Positions 38,732 to 56,666 of a DNA stretch of 64,000 bases are shown here, piece after piece. Position 1 is the stretch's first letter, and the number at the start of each line of letters is the position of its first letter. The notes under the pieces are model-generated. The model was not told where the DNA came from. It worked only from the letters and a program-made list of their open reading frames with translations, and made no database searches. Origin of the DNA: Lobosporangium transversale (taxonomy: Eukaryota); assembly GCF_002105155.1 (NCBI RefSeq), contig NW_019028989.1:620001-684000 (forward strand), written 5' to 3'. A program made the translations under genes and the position numbers.

Positions 38732-41700
38732 ATGTCATCATCATCTCAGAGTAAGGTCGCCAAGATGGGCTCCTTCTTAGCTGTTGCTGGTATTGCAAGC
38801 TTGGCTGCCTTTGGCACCTCAATGGCGCCTTCTGCAGACGCTGCAGTCACGTTTGGTGCTAATAGTTCGCCTGGATCGATCATTCAAGGAGGACTTGCCT
38901 CCATGGTACCTAAACCCGTCAGTATGATGGATAAATACCTTGTTCCTGGTCTCCTCAACATGACATACATTGGTGTGGCCATCACCAAACCCACCCAGAT
39001 TGTTGTCAGTGCTAATGCATCGCTTATGAACCCCTTTGGTTCTATGGCATTGCCTTTGGGTGTAGTCGGTTTAAATGTCCTCCTTGACGATGTAACTTTA
39101 GCGACTGTAACAACTACACCCTTGACCATCGCTGCTGGTATTGGCCCACTCTCCGTGAATGCCACTGTCGACGTTGCAGACGGCGAGACTAACCCTGCTT
39201 TGAAGAACTCGATCAAGAATTTGGTAACTGGATTCTTCGGTGGTGTCACACCTAATGGTCCTCCTCCCAAGCTCGTTATCAGTGGTATTAACCTAGCTGG
39301 TACACCCTTGGGATTGGATCCTATCGTTATCCCCACCCAGATTAAACCATCTGGCCCCATCAAGCCTACAGATGTAACCGCAGGAGCGGGAAAGCCTCCA
39401 GTCATTGGCCTGGCTGGTCTGATCAACCCTGCTATTAATTTTACTATGCCGACGCTTAACAAGGTCACACTCAAAGCCGTTACTGGTGCTCAGCTGACAG
39501 GGGGTGTTGGCTTCTCTTGGAACAACCCTCTGAACGTTGGTTTGGACATCCCTTATGTAACAATTGATGTTGCTTTAAATGGCACGCGTCTATTGACTGT
39601 AGGAGTCGATAGCCTGCACCTCGCTCCCGGTAACATGACTGCTGAGACATTTGTCGATCTCAAGTTCAATAACGACCCCGCAGCTTCTGCTCAGTTGGCT
39701 GCTCTTGTGAATGATTTCCTTGCAGGTATGAAGCATTCTTTTTATTTTTTTATTTTTATTTTTATTTTTTTTTAATTACTATTACTATTTACTATTTTAT
39801 AGTATTTGGTTAACATTCAATCGCGTTTTTTTTTTTTCTCTGTATAAAAAAGGCAATGTAAATCACATATTGAGTATTGGCAACTTTACTTTTGGAACAA
39901 AGGATAACACCACTGCCACAGGCGTGCTCCTTAACACATTGTTCAGCGGAATTGAGATCAACTTGCCACTGCTGAATATCAACACCATTGCTATTCAGCA
40001 AATGATTGCTAGTTATCTCCAACCCTATATTCCTATCGATATCAGCAAACTCGGTTCGGGCACTGGTCCTTCATTGACGACCTACCTTCAAGCTTTGGCT
40101 ATCTCCACTGCCCCAGGACACACTCTGTTGATCGAGCCCAAGATTCAGCTACCTTTGCCATTCGAATTGGACTTGAATATCCCTTACTTCGCCTTGGACA
40201 TCAACCTCGACAACTCAATGCTTGGTCAGTTCTTTTTGGCTAACCTAGTTGGTACAGGCTCTGGACAGGTCGGCATCTCAGTCGGGATTGGTTTGGTCTT
40301 CAGAGAACCCGCTCCAGAGATCCCACCTACTGTTGCCAAGTTGGTGACTGGATTGACGACAGGTTCAAGTCTTGACATCTTGGCTGGAGTCTCCAACATT
40401 GCTATTGGTATCTCACCTGCAGATGCTGTAAATACTTTAAATAATCTGAATATTGCTGTACCTATCTCAAGTCTTATCACCGGCTCCATCAGTACTGGCA
40501 ATTTACTTCAAGATATCATGGCTCAAACCAATGTTACTATTGCTCCCAACGCTGTCAATATCAAGGTTGGCTCCCTGGCTCAGTTCACGATCCATGAGGC
40601 TTCAATTGCCGTGTTGCCTAGTAACATGGTCACTGCTGGTATCAACCTGGACATGTTCCTTGGTCTGCCTGTAATTGCAAACATTGGCTACTTTGGCCTT
40701 CAGGTTTCCCTGGATGATGCCAACCTTGCTGGCGTTGGCTTAACTACAGGCCTCAATTATGGTGGCGGCATGGTCCAAATGAATGCTGGCGTGGCCATTT
40801 CTGTTGGCACTGGTCCAGAGATCAGTGGCAAGGTTGCCAGCCTTGTTAATGCCATTATTGCTCATCAACCTGTCTCGAGCTCTGTTGGTGTCGGTGGTAT
40901 TGTCATTGGCCAGAGTGCCGACGATTTGATAAATGCTCTCTCGCAGGTCAAGGTCTCTATTCCTCTCGGCGGTTTCTTGGGTGGCAATGGTAAGCTAAGC
41001 GCGCATTACTGTTGATAGTAAAGTATTCTGGTGCATTTTTGCCTTTTCTTTTTAAACTTAGTAATATTTAATCATATTCCTTTAATGGTTATAGCACCTG
41101 CTCTTTCGTCAGGTTTCCTGGACAGCATTCTAGCTCAGCTTGGTTTATCTCTCACTGACTTGTCGTTGTCTACAATCCCTAATGCTGGACTCCAAGTCGG
41201 CGCAAAGGCTTCTTTCTCCAACCCTATCCCTATTTCGGTGTCAGTTCCCTTCATTGGAATTAGTGGAGGTCTTGATCGTATTGATGTCGTCGATGTGGGG
41301 CTCAACAATTTGGCTTTGTCGCCTGGACCCAACGCTCTTCAGGCCCAGGTTGCGCTCAACTTCAATAATGCTGCAGAGGCTCAGAGCAAAGTTGCTACCT
41401 TTGTTGGAGAGATTCTGGGTGGTCAGCTCGGTAATACTCCTGAAGCTCTGACCGTCCACAACTTGCGCATTGGTGCTTCCCCTTCGGACTACTTCGATCT
41501 TCTCTCACAAATTGATATCTCGATTCCATCCAAGGACATTCTTAATAAGCCTAACATGGATCTTCTGCTGGCTCACCTTGGCTTGAATCCCGCTGACATG
41601 ACCAACAATCTCTTGAACAACTTGCAGATCGGTGCCATCTCTGCCAACTTGAACAGGGCCCCTGTGATGGAGCTCGGTACTTCACTCACTGTCAGCAACG

Positions 41701-44700
41701 TTTCCTTAAATGCCGCCGTCAACATTGGGTACTTCGGTATCGATCTTGCTTTGGACACCCATGCTTTGGCTCGAGTGGATGTACCTTCGATTACTATTTC
41801 GACTGCTAATAACCAACTTACTCTTGCTATCAAGGCCTCAGTCACTATCCAAGACACTCCTGAAATCCAGACTGATATTGCCAACTTGGTTGACTTCTTC
41901 ATGGCCAACAGCACTACGTCTCCTGTCAACAGTCTGGTTATCTCCAGACCTCTGCTTGGTGTTTCAGCCTCAGATAGCATTCAAACTTTTGCTCTCATCA
42001 AGGTTCCAGTTGGCTTGTCTGACTTGCTTCTGAAGGCTAGGGTCTATGTCAGCCAGCTGCTTGCCGGTCTTGGTGGACTGAACACGGACAATTTGGCCAT
42101 ATCTGGACTTGCCCTTGACTTGAACAGCCCTTCAGTCATTGGTATTCAGGGTGGTGTTCAAGTCAAAAACTTGACGTTACCGATTGATGTCAGCATCAGC
42201 TATGTTGGTGTCTCTTTGGGGTTGGATTCGACTCCATTAGCTGATGTTACTGTTCCTTCATTCACCTTGAGCTCAGCCAACAATGCTCTCAGCGTCAACT
42301 TCCAAGCCTTAGTTGATGTTAAGCAGGGTCAAGAGCTGAGCGGTCAGATCGCTAAGTTGGTTGGGTCTCTCTTATATCCTGGTCAAGTTACCCCACCTAC
42401 CAATGTTGTCATCTATGATCCCGTCTTTGGTGGTGATAAGGATCATTTGTTCCATATACTATCTAAGATCAGAATTAATATTGCCCTTGCTCCTTACTTG
42501 CAAAAAATCGGTGCCATTATCAATGGAGGCTTGGCTGGCGGCAGCAACTTGTTGGCTGGTCTCGACATTGGCTCTTTGATTATTGATCTCAACTCTCCTC
42601 AGACCATTGGCATTGATGCAGATATCTCACTAAAGAATATCACTATCCCTGCTGAGATCAAGCTGAACTATGTGGGTGTCAACGTTGCGATTGATACTGT
42701 CGGTCTGGCTCAGATCGCCGTCCCCTCATTCTCACTCAAGCCCTCAAATGGTGCCCTCGCGATTTCCGCTCATGTTGATATCGAAATTCTGCCCAGTGAC
42801 CAATTGACTGCTGCGATCACAAATCTGATCAGTGGTGTCCTTAAGAATCAGACCACGCCTGCCACTAACCTTGTCATTTCTGGTGCTGTCTTTGGTGGTT
42901 CGCCCACTAACGTCTTCACGATCCTTCAGAGCATTGCCATTCCCATCAATGTTGCTCCATTCATCAATCAGATCCCCGCTCTGATTGCTGGCCAGGGCTC
43001 GCTCTTGGACCGCGTCGCCATTGGTGAACTCATCGTTGACCTGAACTCACCCCAGACCATTGGCGTTGATACCTCGGTCTCAATCAAGAATGTCAATCTT
43101 CCTGCTCAGATCAAGTTGAATTATGTCGGTGCTAATATTGGAATAGGAGAGGTCCCTTTGGTTAAACTTGGTATCCCGAAATTCGCCATGAACCCTAACA
43201 ATGGCAACTTGGATATCTCGCTCCATCTCGACTTGGCTCTCCAGGAGAGCCAGGCTTTGACTCAAACGATTAACGGCCTCGCTCAAGTGATTCTCGCTGG
43301 CAAGCCTATCCCTACCACCACCTTGTTGATCTCAGGGGCTGCTTTCGGAGGCTCACCTTCCGATGTCTTCACATTCCTTCAGGGCGTCAAGATCCCACTA
43401 GATATCACTGCTTACTTGAACCAGGCTCTCACTTCGATCAACAGTCCTGGAGCTCCTTCATTATTGGGTAGAATTGGTATCTCAGATTTGGTTGTCGATC
43501 TGAACTCCCCTCAGGTTATTGGTATTGATGCCTCAGTCCTTGTCAAGAATATTACCCTGCCAGCTCAGATCAAACTCAACTACGTTGGTGCCAACGTTGC
43601 CATTAACTCAATCCCATTAGCTCAGGTTTCTGTACCTCAATTTTCGTTGGCGCCTCAAAATGGTGACTTGCTCTTAAAGGTCCATGTCAATCTGGCACTT
43701 CTAAGCAGCCCCGAGTTGTCCAAGACTATCTCTGGAATGGTTGGTGCTATCCTTGGTAATCAGACATTGCCTCAGACTGATTTGATCATCTCTGGAGCTA
43801 CGTTCGGCGCCTCGCCCACCAACTATTTCACGATTATCCAAGGCGTTATTATCCCCATTGATATCTCACCATACATTGCCAAGATCGGTGGCATGCTTGG
43901 CGGCGCTGGTTCATCGCTCAACGGTCTGAGCCTCTCGGGCTTAACAGTCAACTTGAACCAGGCTCCTACAATCGGAATTGATGTCAATGTCGTCATTCGC
44001 AATCTTGTTCTGCCTGCTAAGCTCAATGTGGGTTACGTTGGCTTTGACATTGGTATCAACAGTGTTCCATTGGTTGAGGTCGCTATCCCCAAAATCGAGC
44101 TTGGCTCCAGTGGCACTGATCTTACAATTTCTACTCATATTGATCTTACCTTGTCTGAAACGGATGCTTCTCAATCCCTTGTGGCCGCGCTCGTGAATGC
44201 CATTGTAGCTGGTCAACTTCCTCAAGGCACAATTATGATTTCTGATATTGCTTTTGGTCCTAGCAAAAATAATGTTTACACAATCTTGCAAGGGGTTCAA
44301 ATCCCTATCCCGATCTCGAAAATCCTCTCGTTCGTCCCTGCTCTTCCTGGTACCACTCCCGGTTCAATTCTCGACAAGCTGTCACTTCAGAGCGCAGATA
44401 TTAACATGAAGAACCCACCTAGGATTGGTGCAGATGTGGACATTGCTCTCCTTGGCTTCCAGTTCGATGCCAAGCTCTTGCTCAATTATGTAAGCATCAG
44501 TGCCTTCTTAGATCAGACTCCCTTGGCAACCGTCTCTGTTCCTGGCATCTCATTGGCTTCCGGCAACAACCAAGTTGAGCTCAAGATCCGCTCGCTTGTC
44601 GACTTAGCTAGTGGTGGTGAGATCCAATCCAAGATTGCTGCCATTGCTGCTCAGTTGATGGGTAATGGCGGTGCTCAAAATGTGAACTTGGTAGTCTCGA

Positions 44701-46073
44701 AGATTGCATTTGGAAGCAGCGCTGGTAACGTTTTCCATATCTTGGATAAGGTCCAGGTCTCAGTTCCGCTTGCTCCTTACCTTCAACAGCTGGCTGGTAT
44801 CATTGGTGGTGTTGCTGGTGGCAACGGTGCAGTTCCTCCATTCAACATCAACAAGCTGGATATCAGCGCTCCCGGTGCCAACGATCTCTCTATTGCAGTT
44901 GGTGCTTCCATTGGTGGCATTGGTTCTAAGATCTCCGTCCAGATGCCCTACGTTGGTCTTAAGGTATCCGCCGGTGGAGCTGGATTTGTATATCCAGCCA
45001 TCAACAACTTCCAACTTTCGAATGGTAATATTGCACTCACCCTTGATTTGCCGTTCCAGCCTGCAGCTCGTCAGATCGTTGCTTCGCTCTCGACTCCTGT
45101 TTCGCAACTGCTATTCTCAACTGTGGGTCAGGTCCCTGGCTCTGTAGTTGTGAACAGCATTGAGTTTGGTGCCTCTCCAAGCCAGGCTTTTGATATTGCT
45201 GCCAAGATTGGGCTTGAAATTCAACTAAACTCTATTTTCCAGAAGGCTCAGGCCTATATTAATGCCCACAACCCACTTCACGTAAACGTAATGAACACAG
45301 TCCTGACGACCACCGGCATCCAGGCTACGATCACTGTCCCCGGTGCTCCTCTATCAGTGCCACTCAAGATGAATTTCCCTATCTCACTCTCCGCTTACTA
45401 CAAGGGTGGTAGCCCTTTTATCGGTATCCAGGCTACATCTATATCCTTGGATCAGTCTCCATGGTCTCTCGGTGCTAACATCCAGACCATCCAACCTGCT
45501 TTTAGTCAAGCCATGGACGGTATCCTTCCCAATGCTCTCCAGTGGAAGAATGCTCTTCAGGATGTAACCATTGGAGGCTTGTCCTTGGGCGAATTTACCG
45601 CATTAGGTGAATTGAGGATTACTCCTCCTGCAGTCACGCTCTGGTCACCAATCACTATACCATTGGATCGATTGAAACTCCATCTAGTTCCTCTGGGCAT
45701 GGACTTTTCGGCCGTATTTGACAATCTCGGCCCACTACTAGTGGATTTAGGCACGATTAACGTTTTGATCAAGGATCGTTTCAACTCTGATGTAATCGAG
45801 ATTCAGAACTTGGGCGGACCTATCCGTCTCACCAATGGCAGAAATGATCTCGCTCTCAATGGATCACTCAAGTTCAATATCCTGCAGTTGCCTGGGATCA
45901 TTATCTCACTTCTGAACCCATCCGGCTTCAAGTTTATCTTCAATATGAGAACTTCGAGTGGCCAGCCCATGCCCTGGTTACAGGATGCACTCAATGGTGT
46001 CCCTGCCACTATCTTCAACAACCTGTTACCTATCCTCGCCAAGGCCTTGAGTAACATCAGGTTTACCATTTAA
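38732..46073 (+). CDS. Giant (~2369 aa) secreted or membrane-entering protein of ~150-aa hydrophobic beta-rich repeats (DUF3712/LEA_2/Tag1-like); exons 38732-39725, 39853-40989, 41095-46073
   Basis: Signal-peptide-like N-terminus (…SADA|AV). Recurring motif DLNSPxxIGID...KNxxxPAxxKLNYVG at ~450-470-nt spacing, plus NP.xxx.IPY/F motifs. Exon lengths sum to 7110 nt in frame. Confidence 0.8.
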
Positions 46074-46290: not shown

Positions 46291-48968
46291 TTATGATGCG
46301 GTTGTTTCTTGATATTTCCATACAAGGACGCGATTGGACCAATCGACTGTAACAATTGTGCTCAGATCTTGTGACACTGCTGTATCTCGAAACAATTCGT
46401 TGGAATCAGGATGGGAGAGTGTCTACGTTTGTTGATAAAAATAAAAAAAAAGTTACTGAATCAGATCTTTCATATTATCATAATATAGCTTTGAGCGTCT
46501 AGGCCCATAAGTTAGACTTACACCGGATGGCTTCTCTGCAATAATATTGCCATCACGAGCGCGTTTAGGCTTACGGGCCAAATCGTACACTAGAACTTTC
46601 CCATCTGTGGAGCCTGCCACAAGAATGTTTTGCCTCATCTCTGTGAGGTTGTTGCTTTTCGCTCTCTTTTTTTTGGATGATGTTGTTGCTACTGTTGATG
46701 GCACCGCAATCATATTCTCTGCCAATGTGAACTTTGTCCAGCTCTCGGTGATAGACCACTCAAGAATTGTCTTGAGCTCTGCATCTGTTGCTGTACTCTT
46801 TGTAGCCTCCCAAATAAGGATCTCGCCTTGCGAATTCTCCCTCGATGCAAACACGAATTCTCCATCATTTTCATCTTGTTCAGATTCATCCTGAGTCTTA
46901 TCTTTCTCATCGTTTTTGCCTTCAATTCCTTCGTTACCGCTAGGTTTTGTGCGGCCTTGATTACGGATACGTCCTCGGGCACGACCTTGTCCATGTGAAC
47001 TGCTACTTCCATTGTGCGATTTCTTATTTGCCATTGCGCTCTTATTATTGATTTCTATAGCGCCTAAGTCTGCTTTGAGGGCATATGACTCTGAGGAGAA
47101 ATGTGGGATGTAGATGATTTCATCCACGGACGACTCATGCCACTCCTGCGATGGTGGGTATATCTTTTGAGGCGTGGCATTATACAGCGATTTTTTCCCT
47201 GACTCCAAATTCTTGTTGACTTCTTTTGCAAGTTTGAAAAGATTGTACTGGGCCATAAGTCCCTTCTCAGTTCCAAAAATCAGATACTTTTCTGAGACCC
47301 CAATCGCTGTCACTGATGAGCCGTCCATTCCATCAAACTTTGCAAGACAGCTAAAGTAAGCGTAAGTGGAAGTAACAAAGGTAGACCAGGCAAATTTGTT
47401 AGATTGGTTCATTATGATTCTCTGCTATCTTGGTAGTTGTTGACAAACACATACCGGGCTTCCTTCTCAAAGTTATGAGGCGACCCAATGTCCCAAAGTC
47501 GTGCAGTTCCATCCACGGAAGCACCTCCAAAAAAAAAAAAAAAAAAAAAAAAAAGGTAGGATACAGGAGACATGGTGAGAGGGCGCGATACGACCATTAA
47601 AGTTGTTGTCGTTCACAAAGTAATATAGTGCACCTTACTGAAAAGCCAACGCGGGTTGGTGAGCGAAAATTTTAGTCGAAGAATTGATGCTGTGTGTCCA
47701 TGTAAGTACTTGTAGCAAATCCCCTGTAATGGATTAATCAGTTTGATACTACCCATGCGGCCTAATCCAAAATAGACAAAGAGATATTAGAGGAAGGGAA
47801 GAGGGATAGACATATGATGGTATTGGGATGGCCCAAAGCACCAAAGTATGCTGTTCTCCTTCTTACCTGCCACTGCCAGAATATTGGTTACATCATGGCG
47901 ATCCGACAATCCTGACCTATACTCTTGCGTAAAAGTGCTCCAGTCTAAACCACCTTCACCTCCGCCCTCATCAAATGAGGATGCTAAAGTCGTCCATGCT
48001 AAACACATAAATTCTTCTTCCTCCAAATGGCTATACTTGGCTATGATCCTTCCAAGGCTACAATCAATTAAGCAAACAGTGTTACCGCCGCAAGTTGCAA
48101 CCAAGCTACTGCTCTTTTTCAGGTAACTGGCTCCGTCCTTTGAGATATGTTGTTTCTGCTCCAGTTTCCTCCTTCTCTGGATGCCTCCATCGTCATGCTT
48201 ATACTCATCCTCGGCTCCTTTATTACACTCCTTTTGCCCTTTCCCAGCACTACGTTCAACTTGGTTCAGATCCTGCACGTGAGTTCGAATACTTGATAAC
48301 GTTGGTTCAAATGCCACTGCCCAAATATCAACGCTATCATCTTCGTGCCCATCGTGGGTGCTTCTGGAATGCGCTCTAAGCATGTGCTTTAAAACGTACT
48401 CATTTGAGGATTCGGTATGAGTGCCTTTCAATTTACCCTTTTTGGAACTCAATACATCTAAAGGCAATGAAAATCATAATCAGTCCTGACTTATTAAAGA
48501 AAGCCAACAAATAAAAAAAGAAGGTACAGCGTATTCTTTTACCATGATCTTACCCAGGAGGTTGGGATAAGCCCACAGCGAATATCTGTTACCTTCGCTC
48601 TGGCCTTGGTTTTGATCCTCATCCTTAGTTTCAGTAATTTCCCTGGGTTCGCTTCGATATTGATCGATACTTTCAGTAAATCTATTTGAGGTTGCTTTCT
48701 TATCTTTTAAATTAGATGATTTGGAGTTTCCTTTCGAGTTATGTTTCGGCTGCTTAGCAACAGAGTTTGCTGTAACATCCTTCGCATTGCTGAGCTTAGG
48801 GATTTTCTTAGCACGTCGCGGTGTTGCTGTCAATGTTTCTGAGCTATCGAAACGTTCCACAAGGCCGAGTCGCTTTATTGACGCTTGGGAAGTCCCATCC
48901 TGAATGCTTCTGGAGGATCTCTGGACAGAAGATCCCATCTTTGACACGGCAGATCTTTTGGGCGGCAT
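46291..48968 (-). CDS. WD40-repeat protein resembling the LRWD1/ORCA WD domain, with a basic disordered N-terminus and no LRRs
   Basis: LRAHS...IWAVAFEP...VATCGGNTVCLIDCSLGRIIAKYSH.EEEEFMCLAWTTL...NILAVAGRMGSIKLI...GICYKYLHGH..SILRLKFS...LFSASVDGTARLWDIG. Last exon ends RVLVWKYQETTAS*, TAA at 46291-46293. Confidence 0.78.
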
Positions 48969-49014
48969 TCTTAAAAGATCATTAATTTAATCGTGTTCTG
49001 AAAATCGTTTTAAA

Positions 49015-49149
49015 GAGTACAGCACAATCTTGGCCCTATTACATCACTGAAAACAGTCACGTAAATGGTCCTCGACGCCTGCACTCCGAACTAGACTAGC
49101 GTGTTTGCTGACACGCAGATATTGTCTATACTATGTAAAACTATGTGAG
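49015..49149 (-). ncRNA. Putative Fanzor omega-RNA scaffold (5' end unknown; may extend into the CDS)
   Basis: Lies between the Fanzor stop and the element end. On the minus strand GAGUGCAG (49086-49079) pairs with terminal CUGUACUC (49022-49015) using a G-U pair. It encloses hairpin UUAC-GU-g-ACUG-UUUU-CAGU-g-AU-GUAA. A second hairpin GCGTGT/ACACGC (49099-49116) is closed by TAGAC/GTCTA. Confidence 0.6.
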
Positions 49150-52146
49150 CTACATATGCTCAATGTGAATTCTCTTGCTACCTCTAGGCTCCTCTCCTTG
49201 CTCGGTCGGCGTCTGTCGCTTGATCGCTCTCTTTTCTCCACTCTCCATGGAAATATTCTTATTTTTGTTTGGCACAAGGTAGGATGGTCGTTCTTGATAA
49301 AGAAGATGACCTTGGACAATGTTGGCTATGTTATGCCCTGCCATGATGTCTCTGTGCATAAATGCCTTGCAGCTGCTGCAATACAGTCGACAGATCTCAA
49401 CCTGACCAACAAATTCTTGACAGATAGGACATTTTTTTGAGGTGTAGTATTCGTTTACGCCAACAACGATGTACCCAAGAGATCGGGCCTAATGAGGTAG
49501 GAGAGCAAGATAAGTTACATTGTGACAACAACGGCAATATAAAGCAATGACCAACAGTTTTCCCATGGCTAGCTTGGCCGGCCACTGTTTCAACTACTAC
49601 TTGAAACAGTATAGCCACCGGCCAAGTTTATTTTGTAATATTGAGCGAGTCCTTACCTTATTCACAAAATACGATTGGAATGATTCGTGTAACGAAGACA
49701 GCCTGGTATTAGACGAAAACTTGCCAAGACCCACTCCGATCACCACCTTATCTCCTTCATTTACCTTCGTTCCAATTGACCCGCCAACCATCTTGAGCAG
49801 ACTGTTGGCAATCTTCTTGTATTCTTCAACCCGGGCCCTTTTCGCATCCCACCTATGTTTCTTGATGACATTGTTGCTGCTATAGAAGGAATCTAGGTCT
49901 TTCTCCACGTCTCTAAGCTTCTCAATGTAGTTTTTTATGCTTGAATCATTTCCACGAAGAGAAGGTAGGCTACCCCCAATGTCACTAATGGACTGTGAAC
50001 CGTAGACCGCTGCTGCCTTCCGCCGCTCCATCCAATGTCGGTATTTGAGAGTGGGCTAGTACGCTGCCTTCTGCTTGACGGCCAAGTTGTAAAATCTGGA
50101 TGTCTGGGTCGCCGTGTTGGTGAGCTCAGTACTTGGTAACAACGCGCTTGCTTCGACGATGAAAGACTGCCCTAAATCTAGACCTAAAATCTTGATTTCT
50201 TCTAGCTTGCAGCCCCAAAGGTCGGTGATATCTTGCTTAGTACTCACTACATTCCTTATCTCGGTCAAGAAATAGTCTGTGCCGCCAAGAGTGGAATTGA
50301 TTCTACAAGGTAATCTTTCCTCGGGAAGTCGCCGATATTTTACCGCATTGAGTTCGTTCAATTTGAATGCTAGCAATTGGAGACGAAACCCATCAGTTCG
50401 AATTGACCCTCGTAAAATATAACCGCGCTTGTCGTAAGTCTGAGGCCCGGGCACGAAGTCATCCTCTCGAATGTATCGAATGTGCTCTCTCATCATGCTG
50501 AGTGGCATTATGGAAGTTGTAGCCTTAAATCCCTTGTATTTCTTGCGCTCTTCCTCTTCAAAGCCACCAATGTCAGTTAGCAGACTTGTAATGAGATACC
50601 CAGGGTCCCTGCCCGAGAGCCACACTCTAAGGTCGGCTTTCGAGGGTGTGCAAGTGAAGTCACCTCTGGCATAACCTTGAAGTTCAGCTTTGAGCTCATT
50701 GTCTTGCCAAAAGATCTCAATCAGTTCTAACTCTGAGAGATTTATAAAGCCATCTTCAAAAGTGGACAACGGAGCAAGTTTTCGACTGTTATTGCAGATT
50801 TTGTTCAGGCGAACAAAGTTCTCTACTGCGGATATGCTAGGGTGCTTGTTATGTCTACAGGTAGCAGACCCTTGTTCTTGAGAGCTTCGATCTGTTATAA
50901 AAGGAATGAAGATATTAGAATATCATTCGCCGTTATCTTACTCAATGATAAAATTTGAGTGGGGATGATAGCACTCATTAGAGCTAGGCGCGCATACCTT
51001 TTCACAAAGTGCTTGTGCGCCCTCCTTGTAATGCTTCCTTAACTCAGCCTTGAGTTGCGTGGCAGTTGATCTCAGGATAACTGACCCTGGATAACGCATT
51101 CTTGTATTGATCGAGCCAGCATCTGCCATAGCTGGCAAAAAGTCCTTGGCCTTATGGATGAAGTTGAGCACATGAGGATCCTTTACGTTGCCAGTTGGGG
51201 GCCTCTTGTTATAGATACACACGAGAAGTGATAGCAGGAAGGTCGTGTTGGCATCATTCGTTTCGTTCTCATCATTCTCATCATTATCCTTCTCAGCTCC
51301 ATTGGGGCCTTCATTGCCGGCCACGCTCTTGCTAAATATACGTGGGCAGATAAGATCGAGCAGTTTTCTGTCTGTGTTGCTGACATCGGTAGCTGAAGCT
51401 GCTCAATGTACTGGCCAATAGCTCTCTGGCAAGTGCGTTTGGTCTTCGAAGCATGGCGAACGACTTCTTGGAGGCAGGCTTTAATCTTGGATCTCAATTG
51501 GGGCTTATCAGTCAATATTCTATTTAGGTTGCCGTTGACCGTCCCAATGTCAAGAGTCCTAGTTGGGTGTTCATACTGCATAGCCCTAACTAAGTCTGTT
51601 TTATCCATTTCGTCCACCGCTTTTTGTGGCTTTTTCGACTTTTCCTTCTCTTTCTTTTTCTTCTGCTTGTTAGAGTCAAGGGCATTCGTATTGGGATTGT
51701 CTTTGTATTTTCTCCCTGAAGAGTGAGAAGGAGGCCATTGGGCAGGAGCTCGGTCAACAGAGCGAAAGATATTGAATGTATCTGAGTGATTGTTCGACTG
51801 GGATGAACTATTGACGGAACCAATGTCCATGTGAAGGTTGTAAAGGCGGATTAGTTCGATGAAAATGTAGGGAAAAGGGATAAAAAGTAAGGCTAATGTC
51901 AGTGCATTACCTCTTGTCTATTCTCCCATTCACTTTTAATTGCTCGCGGATTGGCGCCAGTCTCTGTAGTAGGCTTTCATGAGTCGCGGGAACATGTATG
52001 GAAGTCTGAAATGCAACAGGAAGAGATTTTCTCTGTTGCAGATCCACGAAAACCCTTATAGAGTCTTCAAAATATCCGTCAGCTACCTCCTTTCCCCTCA
52101 CCTCATTGTGTCTCAAGTAATCCTGGATCATGTTCCTGGGATCTTT

Positions 52147-52183
<37 letters not shown>

Positions 52184-53038
52184 AGAGAGAGTTTGATGTG
52201 AAATTCAGTCTTTTAGAAGCGTGCAATCCTGTGGTATACCATTACCTTCTCCAACCTGCTCCTTGACAATTCTGTAGTTGGTGACACTTCCAAGCCGGGA
52301 AATGTTGCTTGTGTAGTCGTTCTTGCTCACGATACACAGCACCGTCAATTGCGATCGTGTAATGTTTAGGGTGGTGAGTACGTCTGCAAGCTTGTACACT
52401 AAAATGCGATCTCTTGAGATAGGGCGCCAAACCGTTGAGATATTCTTGTATGCGAGCATGTCACTGTCTCGGGAGACAACTACATCCTCGAGCTGGCAAT
52501 CAGTCGCAATAGCAACGTCTGCCTCGAATTGACATTCTTGAACAAGCCAGCTCTTGTTCCGCATGTATTTCGCGAATGATTCTCGTGCTTCTTTTGACCA
52601 ATGAAAGGCCTTATCCAACGCCTTTATTACGGCAACGAACTGTTTCTTTCGGACTCGACTCTTGCTTTGCACGCGTTAGTATAGTTCATCGAGCCCTTGT
52701 TGGGCGTCCATCAATGCCTTGGCTCGTACTTCCTCTCGATATATATGAGTATGTTTTTTTTCCTCACAGGCGTCACCGTCAAGATACAGGATAAGGTTTT
52801 CTGGTGTTCCATACTTCCCCAGCTCTCTTTCCATGATCTTGTGGGCTGTATCGAGGGAATGATTGGAATATGCGTTTTGAATTATGGGATGTAAGGTTCC
52901 TAGGACATCGAACCTTATGTAGGCGTTGCAATTGAAGGGATTGAAAGGATTAGAGGTGGCGCAGATTAACGAATGGTAGTGGAGAGTTGCCTCGTAGCCT
53001 GTCTTTAGAAGAAAAGACCAGAGGCCCTCGATTCCCAT
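49150..53038 (-). pseudogene. XPG/FEN1-like PIN nuclease fused to Fanzor/TnpB-like RuvC nuclease (~1140 aa reconstructed); introns 52245-52143, 51910-51808, 50997-50892, 49656-49489
   Basis: PIN motifs MGIEGLW, IRFDVLG, LYLDG, FEADVAI, SRDSDML, KNDY. RuvC-I ILGLDLG (D 50178-50176), RuvC-II plus zinc finger GVNEYYTSKKCPIC...YCSSC (E 49452-49450), RuvC-III HRDIMAGHN (D 49350-49348). Disabled by in-frame stops at 52678-52676 and 50058-50056 and frameshifts near 51397 and ~50850. Confidence 0.85.
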
Positions 53039-53405: not shown

Positions 53406-56171
53406 ATGGACCCCTTGACGATAAAATACATCTTACCATACTCGCTAAATTTTAATCCACATCAGTCGGTAGCCCCCTATCCCATTCCTAAGGAGATACC
53501 CGACCCTTTTACTACGGCTTTCACATTCAACGCGTTCCGTGAATTTTGGAGCCAAGAAAGACTTGCGTACCAATGGGCAGAGTGTTCGGAAAAGAACTCT
53601 CGATTCATTCTTGCCCACAAAGAGAATCTGGATAAACCACTTCCTACGCACAGTAAGGCATATCCTGGCCGCGGTCGTCCACGTGAATTCGATTGGACAA
53701 TCAAGTACGTCTGTTGGCGCCAAGGTCCGAAAGAAGAGTTGACCATTCACCGGGAATCAGTTGGTAATAAATGTCCGGTCTATATCAGGATTTAAAAACC
53801 TGTTGAGCAAGACCAGGTCATGGTGGAGTATTATAGACATCACAACCATGAAACTTCAACAAAGTCTAGGGTCGCTCTTCCTCTGAGCCCTAACGAGCGC
53901 AACTGGATGAAGCCAATGGTCTCCAGCAGCCATGACTGGAAATATATCAAGAATGAATTGAGGCCAAGTGAAGAAGCTCTTCAGGTAATGGTCGTCCAAG
54001 CATGTATTAAATATTTTTGCATTTACTTAGGCAATGACTAATATCCCATGACTTACAGGTTGAGGCAGAGACGAAAAGTGTCCCTCCAAGCTTCCTTATC
54101 ACTTACAACGATGCACGCGCAACGATTTATCGTAAACAGATAAAGGAATTTACAAGAGGTGATAGCATTGTTACCAGTGTTGAGGGATGGATGAAGGAAA
54201 TTCAAGCAAACGGGGGTAAAGGATGGTTTGCTAATGAAATTGGTGTCAACGACCCACAAAGCTATTTGATTGCCTGGTGTACGAAGTTCCAATTGGAGGT
54301 AAGGATTGCTCAGATCCGATATGATCCAACTGGCGTTAACGTTACTTACCGTCCTCGTTTCTGTCTTCAACAGGTCGCAAAGGACAATAGCTTGATAGCC
54401 TGCATGGACTCTACACGGAGAGTCGCTATGTCTCTGAGAGAAGATAAGGATAAAAAGAGCAATAAGGGAAAGGGCAAAAAGGTAGGCTCGTTCCCATCCC
54501 TCTTCACTTTATAAAGGTGACAGGAAATTCCATTTCCTTTTTGAGTCACCTAAAGTGAAGGGGCTGGGAACGAGCCTAGCAAAAAGGATAGAAGTTCTTC
54601 AGCCTGCCTGTTTACGATCCTTGTCAAGGATCGAGTTTTGAGAAAATGCGTTCCAGTTGCCCATATGCTATGCAGCTCAGAGTCATCGTATGTTTGAGCA
54701 TAGTCTAGCAACGATGTGAAGATGGTGCTTATCAAACTGAGACCATTGTATTATGTTCAACAACAGGTTCCTCATAAAGAGATGGTTATCATGGCTCAGA
54801 ACCGAGTGCGGTTTCAAGATGTCAAAGTTCATGGTAGACTGTTCTGTGACACAGAGTGAGGCCATTCAAGAGGTATTCCCTTCCGCATCAGTTTACTTCT
54901 GCCACTTTCATGTGTAGAAGTTATGGGAAGACCGCATGAGGGATGTGTTCAAGGTAAGATATATCATGTTAATGCTCAATCAAGATACCTTTGGCGATAA
55001 TAACATTTTAATGCGACTCCATACTCTTTAGGAGCGATACTGGGTTTGCTTAAAGAAATGCGCATTACAGGGTCTGACGAAAAGTTAATGACATCTGGAA
55101 AGGTATCAAGGACCAATTTTATGATCCGAGCAATGACAAAACAAGCCTCTTCTTTAACTATATGGAAAAGAACTGGATCGCGAAAGAGAAGAGACCAAGA
55201 TGGGTGCTTTTCGTGAGAGAGGTAAGATAAAGCACCAGTAAACGGCGGTATTAAATGACTTCTTCGACGAATTTCAATATCCGACATCCTAATACACCTA
55301 ATAGGACTACCAGCACGTAAATACAAACAACCTTCTGGAGTCTTGGTTCAACGCTTTGGAGACACATGCACTGGAAGGGAAGCGCGGTTTACGAATTGAT
55401 TTACTCATATATAAATTGCAGGGACCCATTGACCAGGACTTCAGGACACAGTATTTCAAGGTCAAAAATGGAATACAACTCGCAACGCTTTCACAGTACG
55501 ACCAAGAAAGACTGGCGAGAGCAATGGCAGTAAGTACCGTGGAGGCAAGGGCCATGGTATGCGAGAAGTTAGTCGAGAAAGAAGTATGTGTCGAAAATCG
55601 ATAATATCAAAAGTTTGATTGTATATGGATAGGCTCTAATCTCTTTCGTTCTTCAAAGTTCGCGGTAAAGTCGTCCGAAGAATCTGGAGTAGAGTATTCC
55701 GTTGCCGCGGATGTAGAGAGGGGCCTCCTTCAGTCATGTTCAAGCCCCGACTATGTCCGACAGAAGATCCCTTGCAAACACATGTGTTTAGTGTCAAGGA
55801 TTTACGACGGCTTCGATGTTCAATATGCCGCTGCTCCTTCGCACTTTGAACATCAGAACAGGCACTTAGAGTTCGACTTAGGGCCTCCTCTCGAGAGCTT
55901 TATCTCACCAGTTTTACTGCGTGAAGAAAAGAAGAGAAAAAGAGAAGAAGTCACCACCCAAGCGTTTGAAGAGTGTGAAGAAGAGCTTATGGTCCAGTGG
56001 AAGGAGCTGGGCCGTATAGTATATAATAGGCAGAAAAGAAAGTGCACATTGAAGGATATGCAAGACTCAATAGCAGAGCTGAGGAATGTAATCCGTACAA
56101 TGACAGCGGGTGTTCAAGCACCTGAACAAATTGACGATCCCTTTGTTTTGGGCCAAGATTGCGCTACACCC
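53406..56171 (+). pseudogene. MULE (Mutator) DDE transposase with FAR1/WRKY-type DNA-binding zinc finger and SWIM finger, disabled
   Basis: YVCWRQG...KCPVYIRI*...YYRHHNH; ACMDST (D 54407); LFTILVKD...VPVAHMLCS; FMVDCS (D 54837); FCHFHV*; TNNLLESW (E 55338); SWIM-like QSCSSPD....PCKH. Stops at 53793-53795 and ~54916-54918, plus a nested insertion. Confidence 0.88.
54483..54578. mobile_element. 96-bp MITE nested in the transposase
   Basis: TIRs TAGGCTCGTTCCCATCCCTCTTCACTTTA / TAAAGTGAAGGGGCTGGGAACGAGCCTA. Perfect 9-bp TSD GCAAAAAGG (54474-54482, 54579-54587). Removing the element plus one TSD (105 nt) restores the transposase frame KGKGKKDRSSSACLFTILVKD. Confidence 0.9.
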
Positions 56172-56182
56172 GTTTTAAAGAG

Positions 56183-56194
56183 TGACGTCACGTG
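56183..56194. promoter_or_regulatory. Overlapping CRE (TGACGTCA) and E-box (CACGTG) motifs; candidate displaced promoter elements of the WD40 gene
   Basis: Exact motifs 4 bp outside the right TSD. Before the insertion they would lie ~50-60 bp upstream of the WD40 ATG (48968). Confidence 0.35.
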
Positions 56195-56666
56195 AACCGC
56201 GATCAAAGTCCTCAGCAAACTTGACAGCCGGCCCACATCCAATCATTCTGGCTTTCTTTCCCCTTACTGACAACTGATTTTATGTCCATAAGAGGCGGGA
56301 GCAGGATCCCTATTAGACAAATTGAAGAAAAGTGGCTGAACTTTGTGATGTAGTCATGTATTACTACCCACTACGCCCAGTTGGTTCAAACACTGTGGAT
56401 CTATATTATCTTGCCACCAATTTGGTTTATCAATCAAACATCTTTATATGCTCAATGCGATCCAGGAACAACCGTCCTCAACTTCAACTTCGGGTGCTTA
56501 ATTACTTCACACAGCACATTCATTTCATTTCTTGGCTACTGAAGATTTTTTTAAACTCCTATTTATTTCTTTAATGTATTTCCTTTTACTAACATACTTT
56601 ACAAAACTAATCAAGACCGTACACAAACATCTTTTCCCTCCGAGTTCTTTGCTTGCAGAATCAGAT

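Follow-up and report, generated by a model that had tools for sequence, protein, structure and literature searches.

The window, a stretch of 64,000 nucleotides of Lobosporangium transversale DNA, contains a 7.16-kb MULE/MuDR element that sits between the 3' end of the RNA polymerase II large-subunit gene, recognised by its heptad repeats, and a host gene starting at 48968. The right terminal inverted repeat (TIR; 49015-49036, plus strand), at the 3' end of a Fanzor gene, matches 56171-56150 at 18 of 22 positions, and this left TIR (56150-56171, minus strand) is its best inverted partner in the window. A second left-TIR candidate at 56355 (15 of 22 matches, no target site duplication) was dropped in favour of 56171. 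The sequence GTTTTAAA lies outside both element ends as the target site duplication (TSD; right copy 49007-49014, left copy 56172-56179, both plus strand). It becomes CGTTTTAAA, of 9 bp, if the left TIR is one base shorter and 49006 and 56171 are counted, and it is part of a 13-bp direct repeat flanking the element. MULE/MuDR elements produce TSDs of 8-11 bp, a range that includes the 8-9 bp found here next to the TIRs; the relatives described below could not fix the length at 8 or 9 bp. Other copies of the window element were observed through the contigs of sequencing runs. In each of the three DNA runs X1, X3 and X4, whose loose ends are identical and were counted as one source, four contigs exit into other flanks before 49015 and three before 49014; two further X1 contigs exit before 49017. 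The TIR, the TSD and the exits at 49014/49015 bear out the transposon end that the sequence-only reading had placed at 49015. A TSD was absent from all seven full-length metagenome contigs of relatives, which were possibly joined from different copies.

Two genes are carried in divergent orientation. A MULE/MuDR-type transposase gene in pieces (53406-56195, plus strand) was located by tblastn to relatives. In the relative L001, the Pfam families MULE (E 6e-4) and SWIM (E 7e-3) were matched by exon pieces only, both below the curated cut-offs, and 11 of 18 long loci have a transposase piece upstream in divergent orientation. The last transposase ORF of the window (55782-56195) runs through the left TIR to a stop in host DNA, unlike that of L001, which stops ~160 nt inside the element; the left sub-terminal region of the window copy seems to be shortened. 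In locus L047 (1-1890), likely an internally deleted element, the 3' piece of the transposase and the last Fanzor exon are only ~800 nt apart.

The second gene (49150-53038, minus strand; stop codon at 49152-49150) is broken and is predicted to encode a FEN1/XPG-like domain fused to a Fanzor1-type RuvC nuclease. Its introns (51808-51910, 50892-50997 and 49489-49656, minus strand) are spliced out in run X2, in which a FEN1-side exon is joined in frame with a Fanzor-side exon. RTDG, DLG, NEYYTSKKC, a C4 finger and HRD mark the C-terminal part. The RuvC triad D-E-D, with the E six residues before the C4 zinc finger and RD thereafter, is arranged as reported for Fanzor1 in the accessible text of PMC13565253, and D, E and D are kept in 20/20, 14/14 and 15/15 of the aligned homologs with a residue at the position. 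RTDG corresponds to the TDG motif of the WED domain, described as a Fanzor1 mark (PMC10711439), and its D is kept in 20 of 21 homologs. The RuvC-I motif DPG was found in homolog P0006, with DLG in its place in the window and in most aligned homologs. The Pfam profile Cas12f1-like_TNB was matched with an E of 1.3e-10. No solved Fanzor1 was matched by sequence search, and atlas look-alikes at 0.97 correspond to DUF8286/TNB clusters and are taken as a lead only. The N-terminal ~280 positions match the Rad2/XPG/FEN1/EXO1 profile (E 6.6e-13), as represented by yeast Rad2 (4q0r), FEN1 (1a76) and EXO1 (3qea), and seven acidic positions are kept in 13/14 to 21/21 of the aligned homologs with a residue there. 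Every one of the 18 homologs that reach 1100 aa has the FEN1-like domain, as do 38 of all 120 matches and 20 of 22 loci having enough upstream DNA. Mortierellaceae are the source of every named homolog of the Fanzor fragment. Unlike the FEN1/XPG/EXO1 family, the domain predicted here would be fused to an RNA-guided nuclease inside a transposon.

The Fanzor reading frame of the window copy is not intact and carries at least four lesions, namely nonsense codons (TAG at 52678-52676 and 50058-50056) and frameshifts near 51395 and 50860. The sequence-only reading, whose assignment of an omega-RNA scaffold is supported below, had overlooked these two stops and two frameshifts. As the gene is broken, any action of the window copy's RNA would be limited to trans, using protein supplied by another copy. 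Over two of the lesions, the stop at 50058 and the shift near 51395, the contigs of run X2 are identical to the window. None of the runs with matching contigs is recorded as RNA; X2 was assigned from splicing and taken as RNA because three GT-AG introns are skipped and silent stretches have no cover. The broken copy (49048-51711) is transcribed and correctly spliced in X2 despite its premature stops. Cover of the end of the window copy reaches 49017, and three long-RNA contigs from other copies extend beyond the end, by 134-254 nt, into their flanks. X2 is without cover at 48946-49011 and over most of the transposase gene, such contig gaps not being evidence of absence, and its contigs represent long RNA, from which RNA ends cannot be read.

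Downstream of the Fanzor stop, the minus strand at 49015-49128 is predicted to fold into an omegaRNA scaffold of two stem-loops, SL1 and SL2. SL1 consists of the core hairpin GCGUGU/ACACGC with a 6-nt loop (49099-49116) and an extension UAGAC/GUCUA (49128-49124 with 49096-49092). SL2 is a long stem of 72 nt (49015-49086) whose outer eight pairs close on the last base of the element; GAGUGCAG (49086-49079) pairs with CUGUACUC (49022-49015), with one G-U, and this closing helix surrounds a hairpin with a UUUU loop (49070-49032). The 8-nt stem on the last bases of the element, the enclosed UUUU-loop hairpin and the preceding GCGUGU/ACACGC (49116-49099) had been described from the letters and were all recovered in the predicted fold. 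On the minus strand the terminal 76-nt stem reaches -30.7 kcal/mol (z -4.47, 0 of 200 shuffles as good) versus -16.1 kcal/mol on the plus strand (z -1.69, 13 of 200), and the entire 135 nt fold more weakly (z -2.40, 8 of 200). The strand preference, which had been argued from a G-U wobble, was also seen in the family, where the Fanzor strand folds better in 29 of 32 ends, beyond a composition effect (p 2e-4), and G-U pairs make up 119 of 814 pairs. In a diverged X1 copy, six of eight listed changes at paired sites lead to G-U on the Fanzor strand, as read by hand on the predicted fold. Within SL2, the window carries GTGATGT (49041-49047, minus strand), a decayed form of GTGACGT, the motif that the family has at 28-34 nt inside its right ends. 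Rfam gave no match up to E 5. Some other copies in X1 and X2 carry scaffold deletions (49073 joined to 49135 with nine letters between; 49034 joined to 49078), and one scaffold-deleted copy appears in RNA and reads into its own flank.

A metagenome scan yielded 80 related loci. Near-identical copies, early-ending contigs, loci without an anchor and ends with long insertions or duplications were left out, so that the statistics are based on 31 of the 80 loci plus the window; no relative was found in viral and prokaryote contig collections. Behind the stop codons of many relatives lies a GUGUG/CACAC-type hairpin followed by a long stem with GGUGACGU; the stem ends in most cases on a C, 27 nt behind TGACGT. 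In multi-copy families, the sequences separate at this position or no more than a few bases from it. Loci L001-L004 share one end and have four flanks, as do L008-L010/L013/L014, with a single-base variant upstream in one. Conservation had been predicted to drop at the element end, and it does so in the other copies and in the relatives; a conserved scaffold followed by a variable flank is the pattern of a Fanzor1 omegaRNA. Conservation at the end peaks at positions -32 to -28, which belong to the TGACGT motif and are kept in 29-30 of 31 relatives. The subfamilies of L023, L034, L037, L048, L049, L050 and L045, in which SL2 is 30-60 nt longer or its inner hairpin is duplicated, keep SL1 and the 27-nt end.

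A covariance model (R1) was built from 12 relatives with the window left out, and its sole significant match in the 64 kb was 49128-49015 on the minus strand (36.8 bits, E 7.7e-7). R1 finds 34 of the 49 loci searched, 12 of these being training sequences. An alignment-free swap test was performed on 32 ends, in which the last 10 nt, just 42% identical between elements, pair with their own 5' arm at -9.3 kcal/mol versus -5.9 with foreign arms (0 of 10,000 permutations as good). On 19 cluster representatives the values were -8.7 and -6.1 (0 of 20,000). No signal was obtained for an upstream control region (p 0.49) and no effect for the flank (-5.15 versus -4.88). In the middle of the window SL2, 25 foreign arms pair better than its own arm. 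In a fitted alignment of 35 sequences, 95.4% of SL1 cells are paired and two-sided changes occur in all six pairs. The closing helix is 67% paired, with a terminal G-C in 28 of 32 and a next pair that is A-U in 13 and G-C in 12 of 34. Its covariation of 0.319 versus 0.206 lies above all 500 shuffles, which kinship among sequences alone can exceed. The register used here was picked after inspection of the alignment and leaves about half of the inner pairs unpaired; a first hand-drawn register, off by three columns, was 48% paired. RNAalifold recovered SL1 from two sequence-only alignments and the middle helix from one, and did not recover the closing helix from either; the one that gave only SL1 was a plain MAFFT alignment. 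The covariation check proposed for the stem is thus answered by the swap tests, the two-sided changes of SL1 and the covariation of the closing helix.

At the right end of the MULE transposon, 49128-49015 on the minus strand make up a two-stem structure that is conserved and covaries, and this structure is very probably the omegaRNA scaffold of the element's FEN1-fused Fanzor1. Its position is that of a Fanzor1 omegaRNA, downstream of the Fanzor ORF and overlapping the right TIR (49036-49015), and so is its layout in terms of stems (pseudoknots aside), with an SL1 of ~7 bp and then a stem before the guide. In the accessible text of PMC11423790, SpuFz1 and PpFz1 have an SL1 of seven pairs and one SL2 followed by the guide, the same layout as in the window and the family. 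Judging from other OMEGA systems, the transcript would be trimmed to SL1, SL2 and a guide of ~15 nt read from the flank, and Fanzor would bind this RNA and cut the empty site left by excision or present in another nucleus, whereupon repair from a filled copy would restore the element. In the step with the least support, the FEN1-like domain may trim cut ends, flaps or RNA. The last 27 nt of the scaffold serve at the same time as TIR, and the TGACGT of the stem likely also as transposase site. The window copy, in which TGACGT is decayed, would serve at most as guide donor in trans.

Several known systems resemble parts of this arrangement. SpuFz1 of element Spu-1 (Saito 2023, PMC10432273; Xu 2024, PMC11423790) has, as far as these sources are accessible, a scaffold of 75 nt versus ~100-115 nt here, with no evident shared sequence, and a protein of 638 aa versus 1100-1300 aa with a FEN1-like N-terminus. 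In contrast to Spu-1, the TSD here is 8-9 bp long, variable and outside the stem, and the element carries its own transposase gene. The Mucorales elements ROr-4, PBl-3 as well as MCi-4 (Bao and Jurka 2013, PMC3627910) are alike in having MuDR-like TIRs that mostly start with G, a 9-bp TSD, GTCAC ~30-36 nt inside the ends and a Fanzor1 cargo in early-diverging fungi. They differ from the window element in that, according to the accessible text, no transposase is encoded, GTCAC stands at both ends and no omegaRNA is described. In 13 of the 14 text supplements of that report, FEN1-like motifs were not found, two YLDG matches being unrelated. PpFz1 of Parasitella parasitica (Xu 2024, PMC11423790) is likewise a Fanzor1 from Mucoromycota that has an extra domain and whose omegaRNA consists of SL1+SL2. 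Its extra domain, however, is described there as an internal FRI insertion that binds cyclophilin and not as a second nuclease, its RNA is 75 nt long with an SL2 of 4 bp, and its protein gave no sequence match with that of the window or the family.

Two positions come into question for the guide. Read directly after the stem, the candidate 15-nt guide is UUUAAAACGAUUUUC (49000-49014, minus strand), which includes the TSD; alternatively, the guide would begin after the TSD, at 49006 or 49005. Both start and length are inferred from other Fanzor1s, and SpuFz1 RNAs are reported to reach 14-15 nt past the scaffold (PMC10432273). The letters given in the sequence-only reading are those of the flank, and the start at 49014 that it stated had no support as written, yet is reasonable. 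In the accessible text on known Fanzor structures, the 3' TSD is held within the scaffold and the 5' TSD within the target-adjacent motif (TAM), TAMs of 4-5 nt are read in the adjacent position, and MuDR TSDs are divergent (PMC13565253; PMC10711439). As known Fanzor1s hold the TSD within the scaffold, the guide may instead start behind it here. The flanking positions +1 to +3 pair with a probability of 0.5-0.7 in folds, so that energy alone leaves the edge of the scaffold unfixed. The arrangement with the 3' TSD in the scaffold and the 5' TSD as TAM was not found in this family, in which TSDs vary, the flank shows no covariation and the stem closes at the TIR end. Since TSDs vary freely and do not covary with the stem, they can serve neither as a fixed scaffold nor as a fixed TAM, and a covarying stem that closes on the last TIR base next to a variable TSD makes a guide start at 49014 plausible.

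No conserved motif directly adjoins the insertion sites as an ordinary TAM would. Owing to the 13-bp repeat, the window site has ACTC as the 4 nt ahead of the TSD whether it is empty or filled, and an adjacent TAM could therefore not tell the two states apart. Further out, host DNA contains the palindrome TGACGTCA (56183-56190), one of two such palindromes in the window, with its ACGT core 14-17 nt outside the left end and 5 nt from the TSD. ACG occurs at -18/-17 in seven of eight left flanks of full-length elements, a pattern noticed after the fact. Among 47 right flanks, to which a looser rule was applied, it occurs in 3 (Fisher p 4e-6; background 1.8%). Five variable bases separate this target motif from the TSD. 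Insertion sites with (T)GACGT at a constant distance outside the left TIR are at 56183-56190 in the window and at L001:145-169, L002:193-217, L003:185-209, L008:280-304, L010:279-303 and L020:104-128. The left flank of L030 itself has ACGTCA ~13-17 nt out, as read by eye. L001:110-169 together with L030:90-135 appear to represent two related elements back to back, their left ends facing around one motif, and this motif resembles what would be left of an earlier right-end hairpin. On the simplest view, TGACGT is a motif that the transposase binds at two places, the right end and the target; (T)GACGT near insertions could be either an offset TAM or just transposase targeting. The insertion-site motif resembles a CRE/ATF site, and tethering by a host bZIP protein is a possible third cause of its presence.

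Within the omegaRNA reading, the account given a slight preference is that the guide starts after the 8-9-bp TSD, or that a short relaxed TAM is used, with the ACGT motif reflecting only targeting by the transposase or a host bZIP protein. It is in line with the reported Fanzor1s that keep the TSD in the scaffold and read adjacent TAMs of 4-5 nt (PMC10711439; PMC13565253), and with the loose TAM (ATN) of PpFz1. Targeting alone is further suggested by GTCAC, a general MuDR end motif of Mucorales fungi in the accessible text of PMC3627910, and by at least one insertion inside the right end of another element, adjoining its motif; in an X1 contig, ~14 nt separate the motif position of a right end from the left TIR of another element, which lies beyond it. 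Against a start after the TSD stand TSDs that vary freely without covariation with the stem, and an adjacent TAM is at odds with the ACTC shared by both states. A more speculative proposal, which we regard as rather doubtful, is that the guide includes the TSD and that Fanzor licenses cutting through the transposase target motif (T)GACGT, read from a distance, 5 nt upstream of the target. This would spare the filled site, which has the motif 27 nt away inside the guide-RNA gene, and the fused FEN1-like 5' nuclease would process the break in favour of homing. If the offset TAM were real, the family would represent a natural two-nuclease RNA-guided editor, TAM screens with 7-8N would mostly miss such a TAM, and the MULE-Fanzors of Mortierellaceae would solve the problem of variable TSDs in a new way.

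Outside the omegaRNA reading, the structure could be a 3'-end element of the Fanzor mRNA, acting in stability or termination, or a non-cutting scaffold, with the flank not used as guide. The X2 contigs of the window copy, which stop at 49017, and the lack of a conserved motif adjoining insertion sites as ordinary TAM would fit such a role, but the RuvC triad and the zinc finger are conserved, the contigs of three other copies enter the flank and the closing of the stem on the final base of the element is what a scaffold-guide junction would show; this alternative is considered quite improbable. Least probable of all is a fold that reflects only a transposon-end feature at the DNA level (a sub-terminal inverted repeat or a transposase hairpin), for which GACGT kept more on the 3' side of the stem than on the pairing side and the presence of GTCAC at similar depth in most Mucorales MuDR ends, with or without Fanzor (accessible text of PMC3627910), can be cited, whereas G-U pairs are frequent (119 of 814) and the fold favours one strand, it was found only at the Fanzor end of the window element, and SL1 covaries strongly 85-100 nt inside. 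A constraint on both DNA and RNA had been proposed from differences between the TIRs. The left TIR does differ from the right TIR inside the stem (TIR positions 2, 5, 6 and 10), and of these four left-TIR changes, worked through by hand, two would each cost a pair and the other two would replace G-U by G-C. The argument is weak, as pairing is better with the right TIR than with the left version in three of four elements, and the TGACGT motif is a stronger sign of constraint at the DNA level.

Fanzor omegaRNAs at TIR ends and Fanzor elements of the MuDR type are already known. For the FEN1-Fanzor fusion, the RNA family and the offset target motif, no report was found in the open-access papers searched; the proteins may be listed in Repbase or in the large supplementary locus tables of Saito 2023 and Jiang 2023. 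The scaffold and the end of the guide RNA are defined here for a widespread Fanzor family, so that the protein of this family can be tested directly. In the Fanzors reported so far, a fixed TSD serves as TAM and scaffold, yet MuDR TSDs vary (accessible text of PMC13565253), a point on which the MULE-Fanzor family bears; here the covarying stem stops short of the TSD and a constant distance separates insertions from a motif, which leads to a concrete prediction. From the conserved FEN1-like domain it may be learnt how repair that follows cutting is directed in a natural system. The decayed window copy matters mainly as a pointer to this family.

The candidate guide is upstream DNA of the neighbouring host gene, whose first ORF (48480-48968, minus strand) has its ATG 47 nt beyond the right end and X2 cover up to 48938. 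Right ends often lie shortly before an ATG on the same strand (window 48968-49014; right flanks of L001, L011 and L052), and a 60-codon frame starting with ATG was found within 400 nt in 10 of 14 long right flanks, a count made without a control. The right-end TGACGT might stand in for a promoter motif displaced by the insertion. Elsewhere in the window, an ORF of 1680 codons (41031-46073), unrelated to the guide-RNA finding, encodes internally repeated, hydrophobic, beta-rich units.
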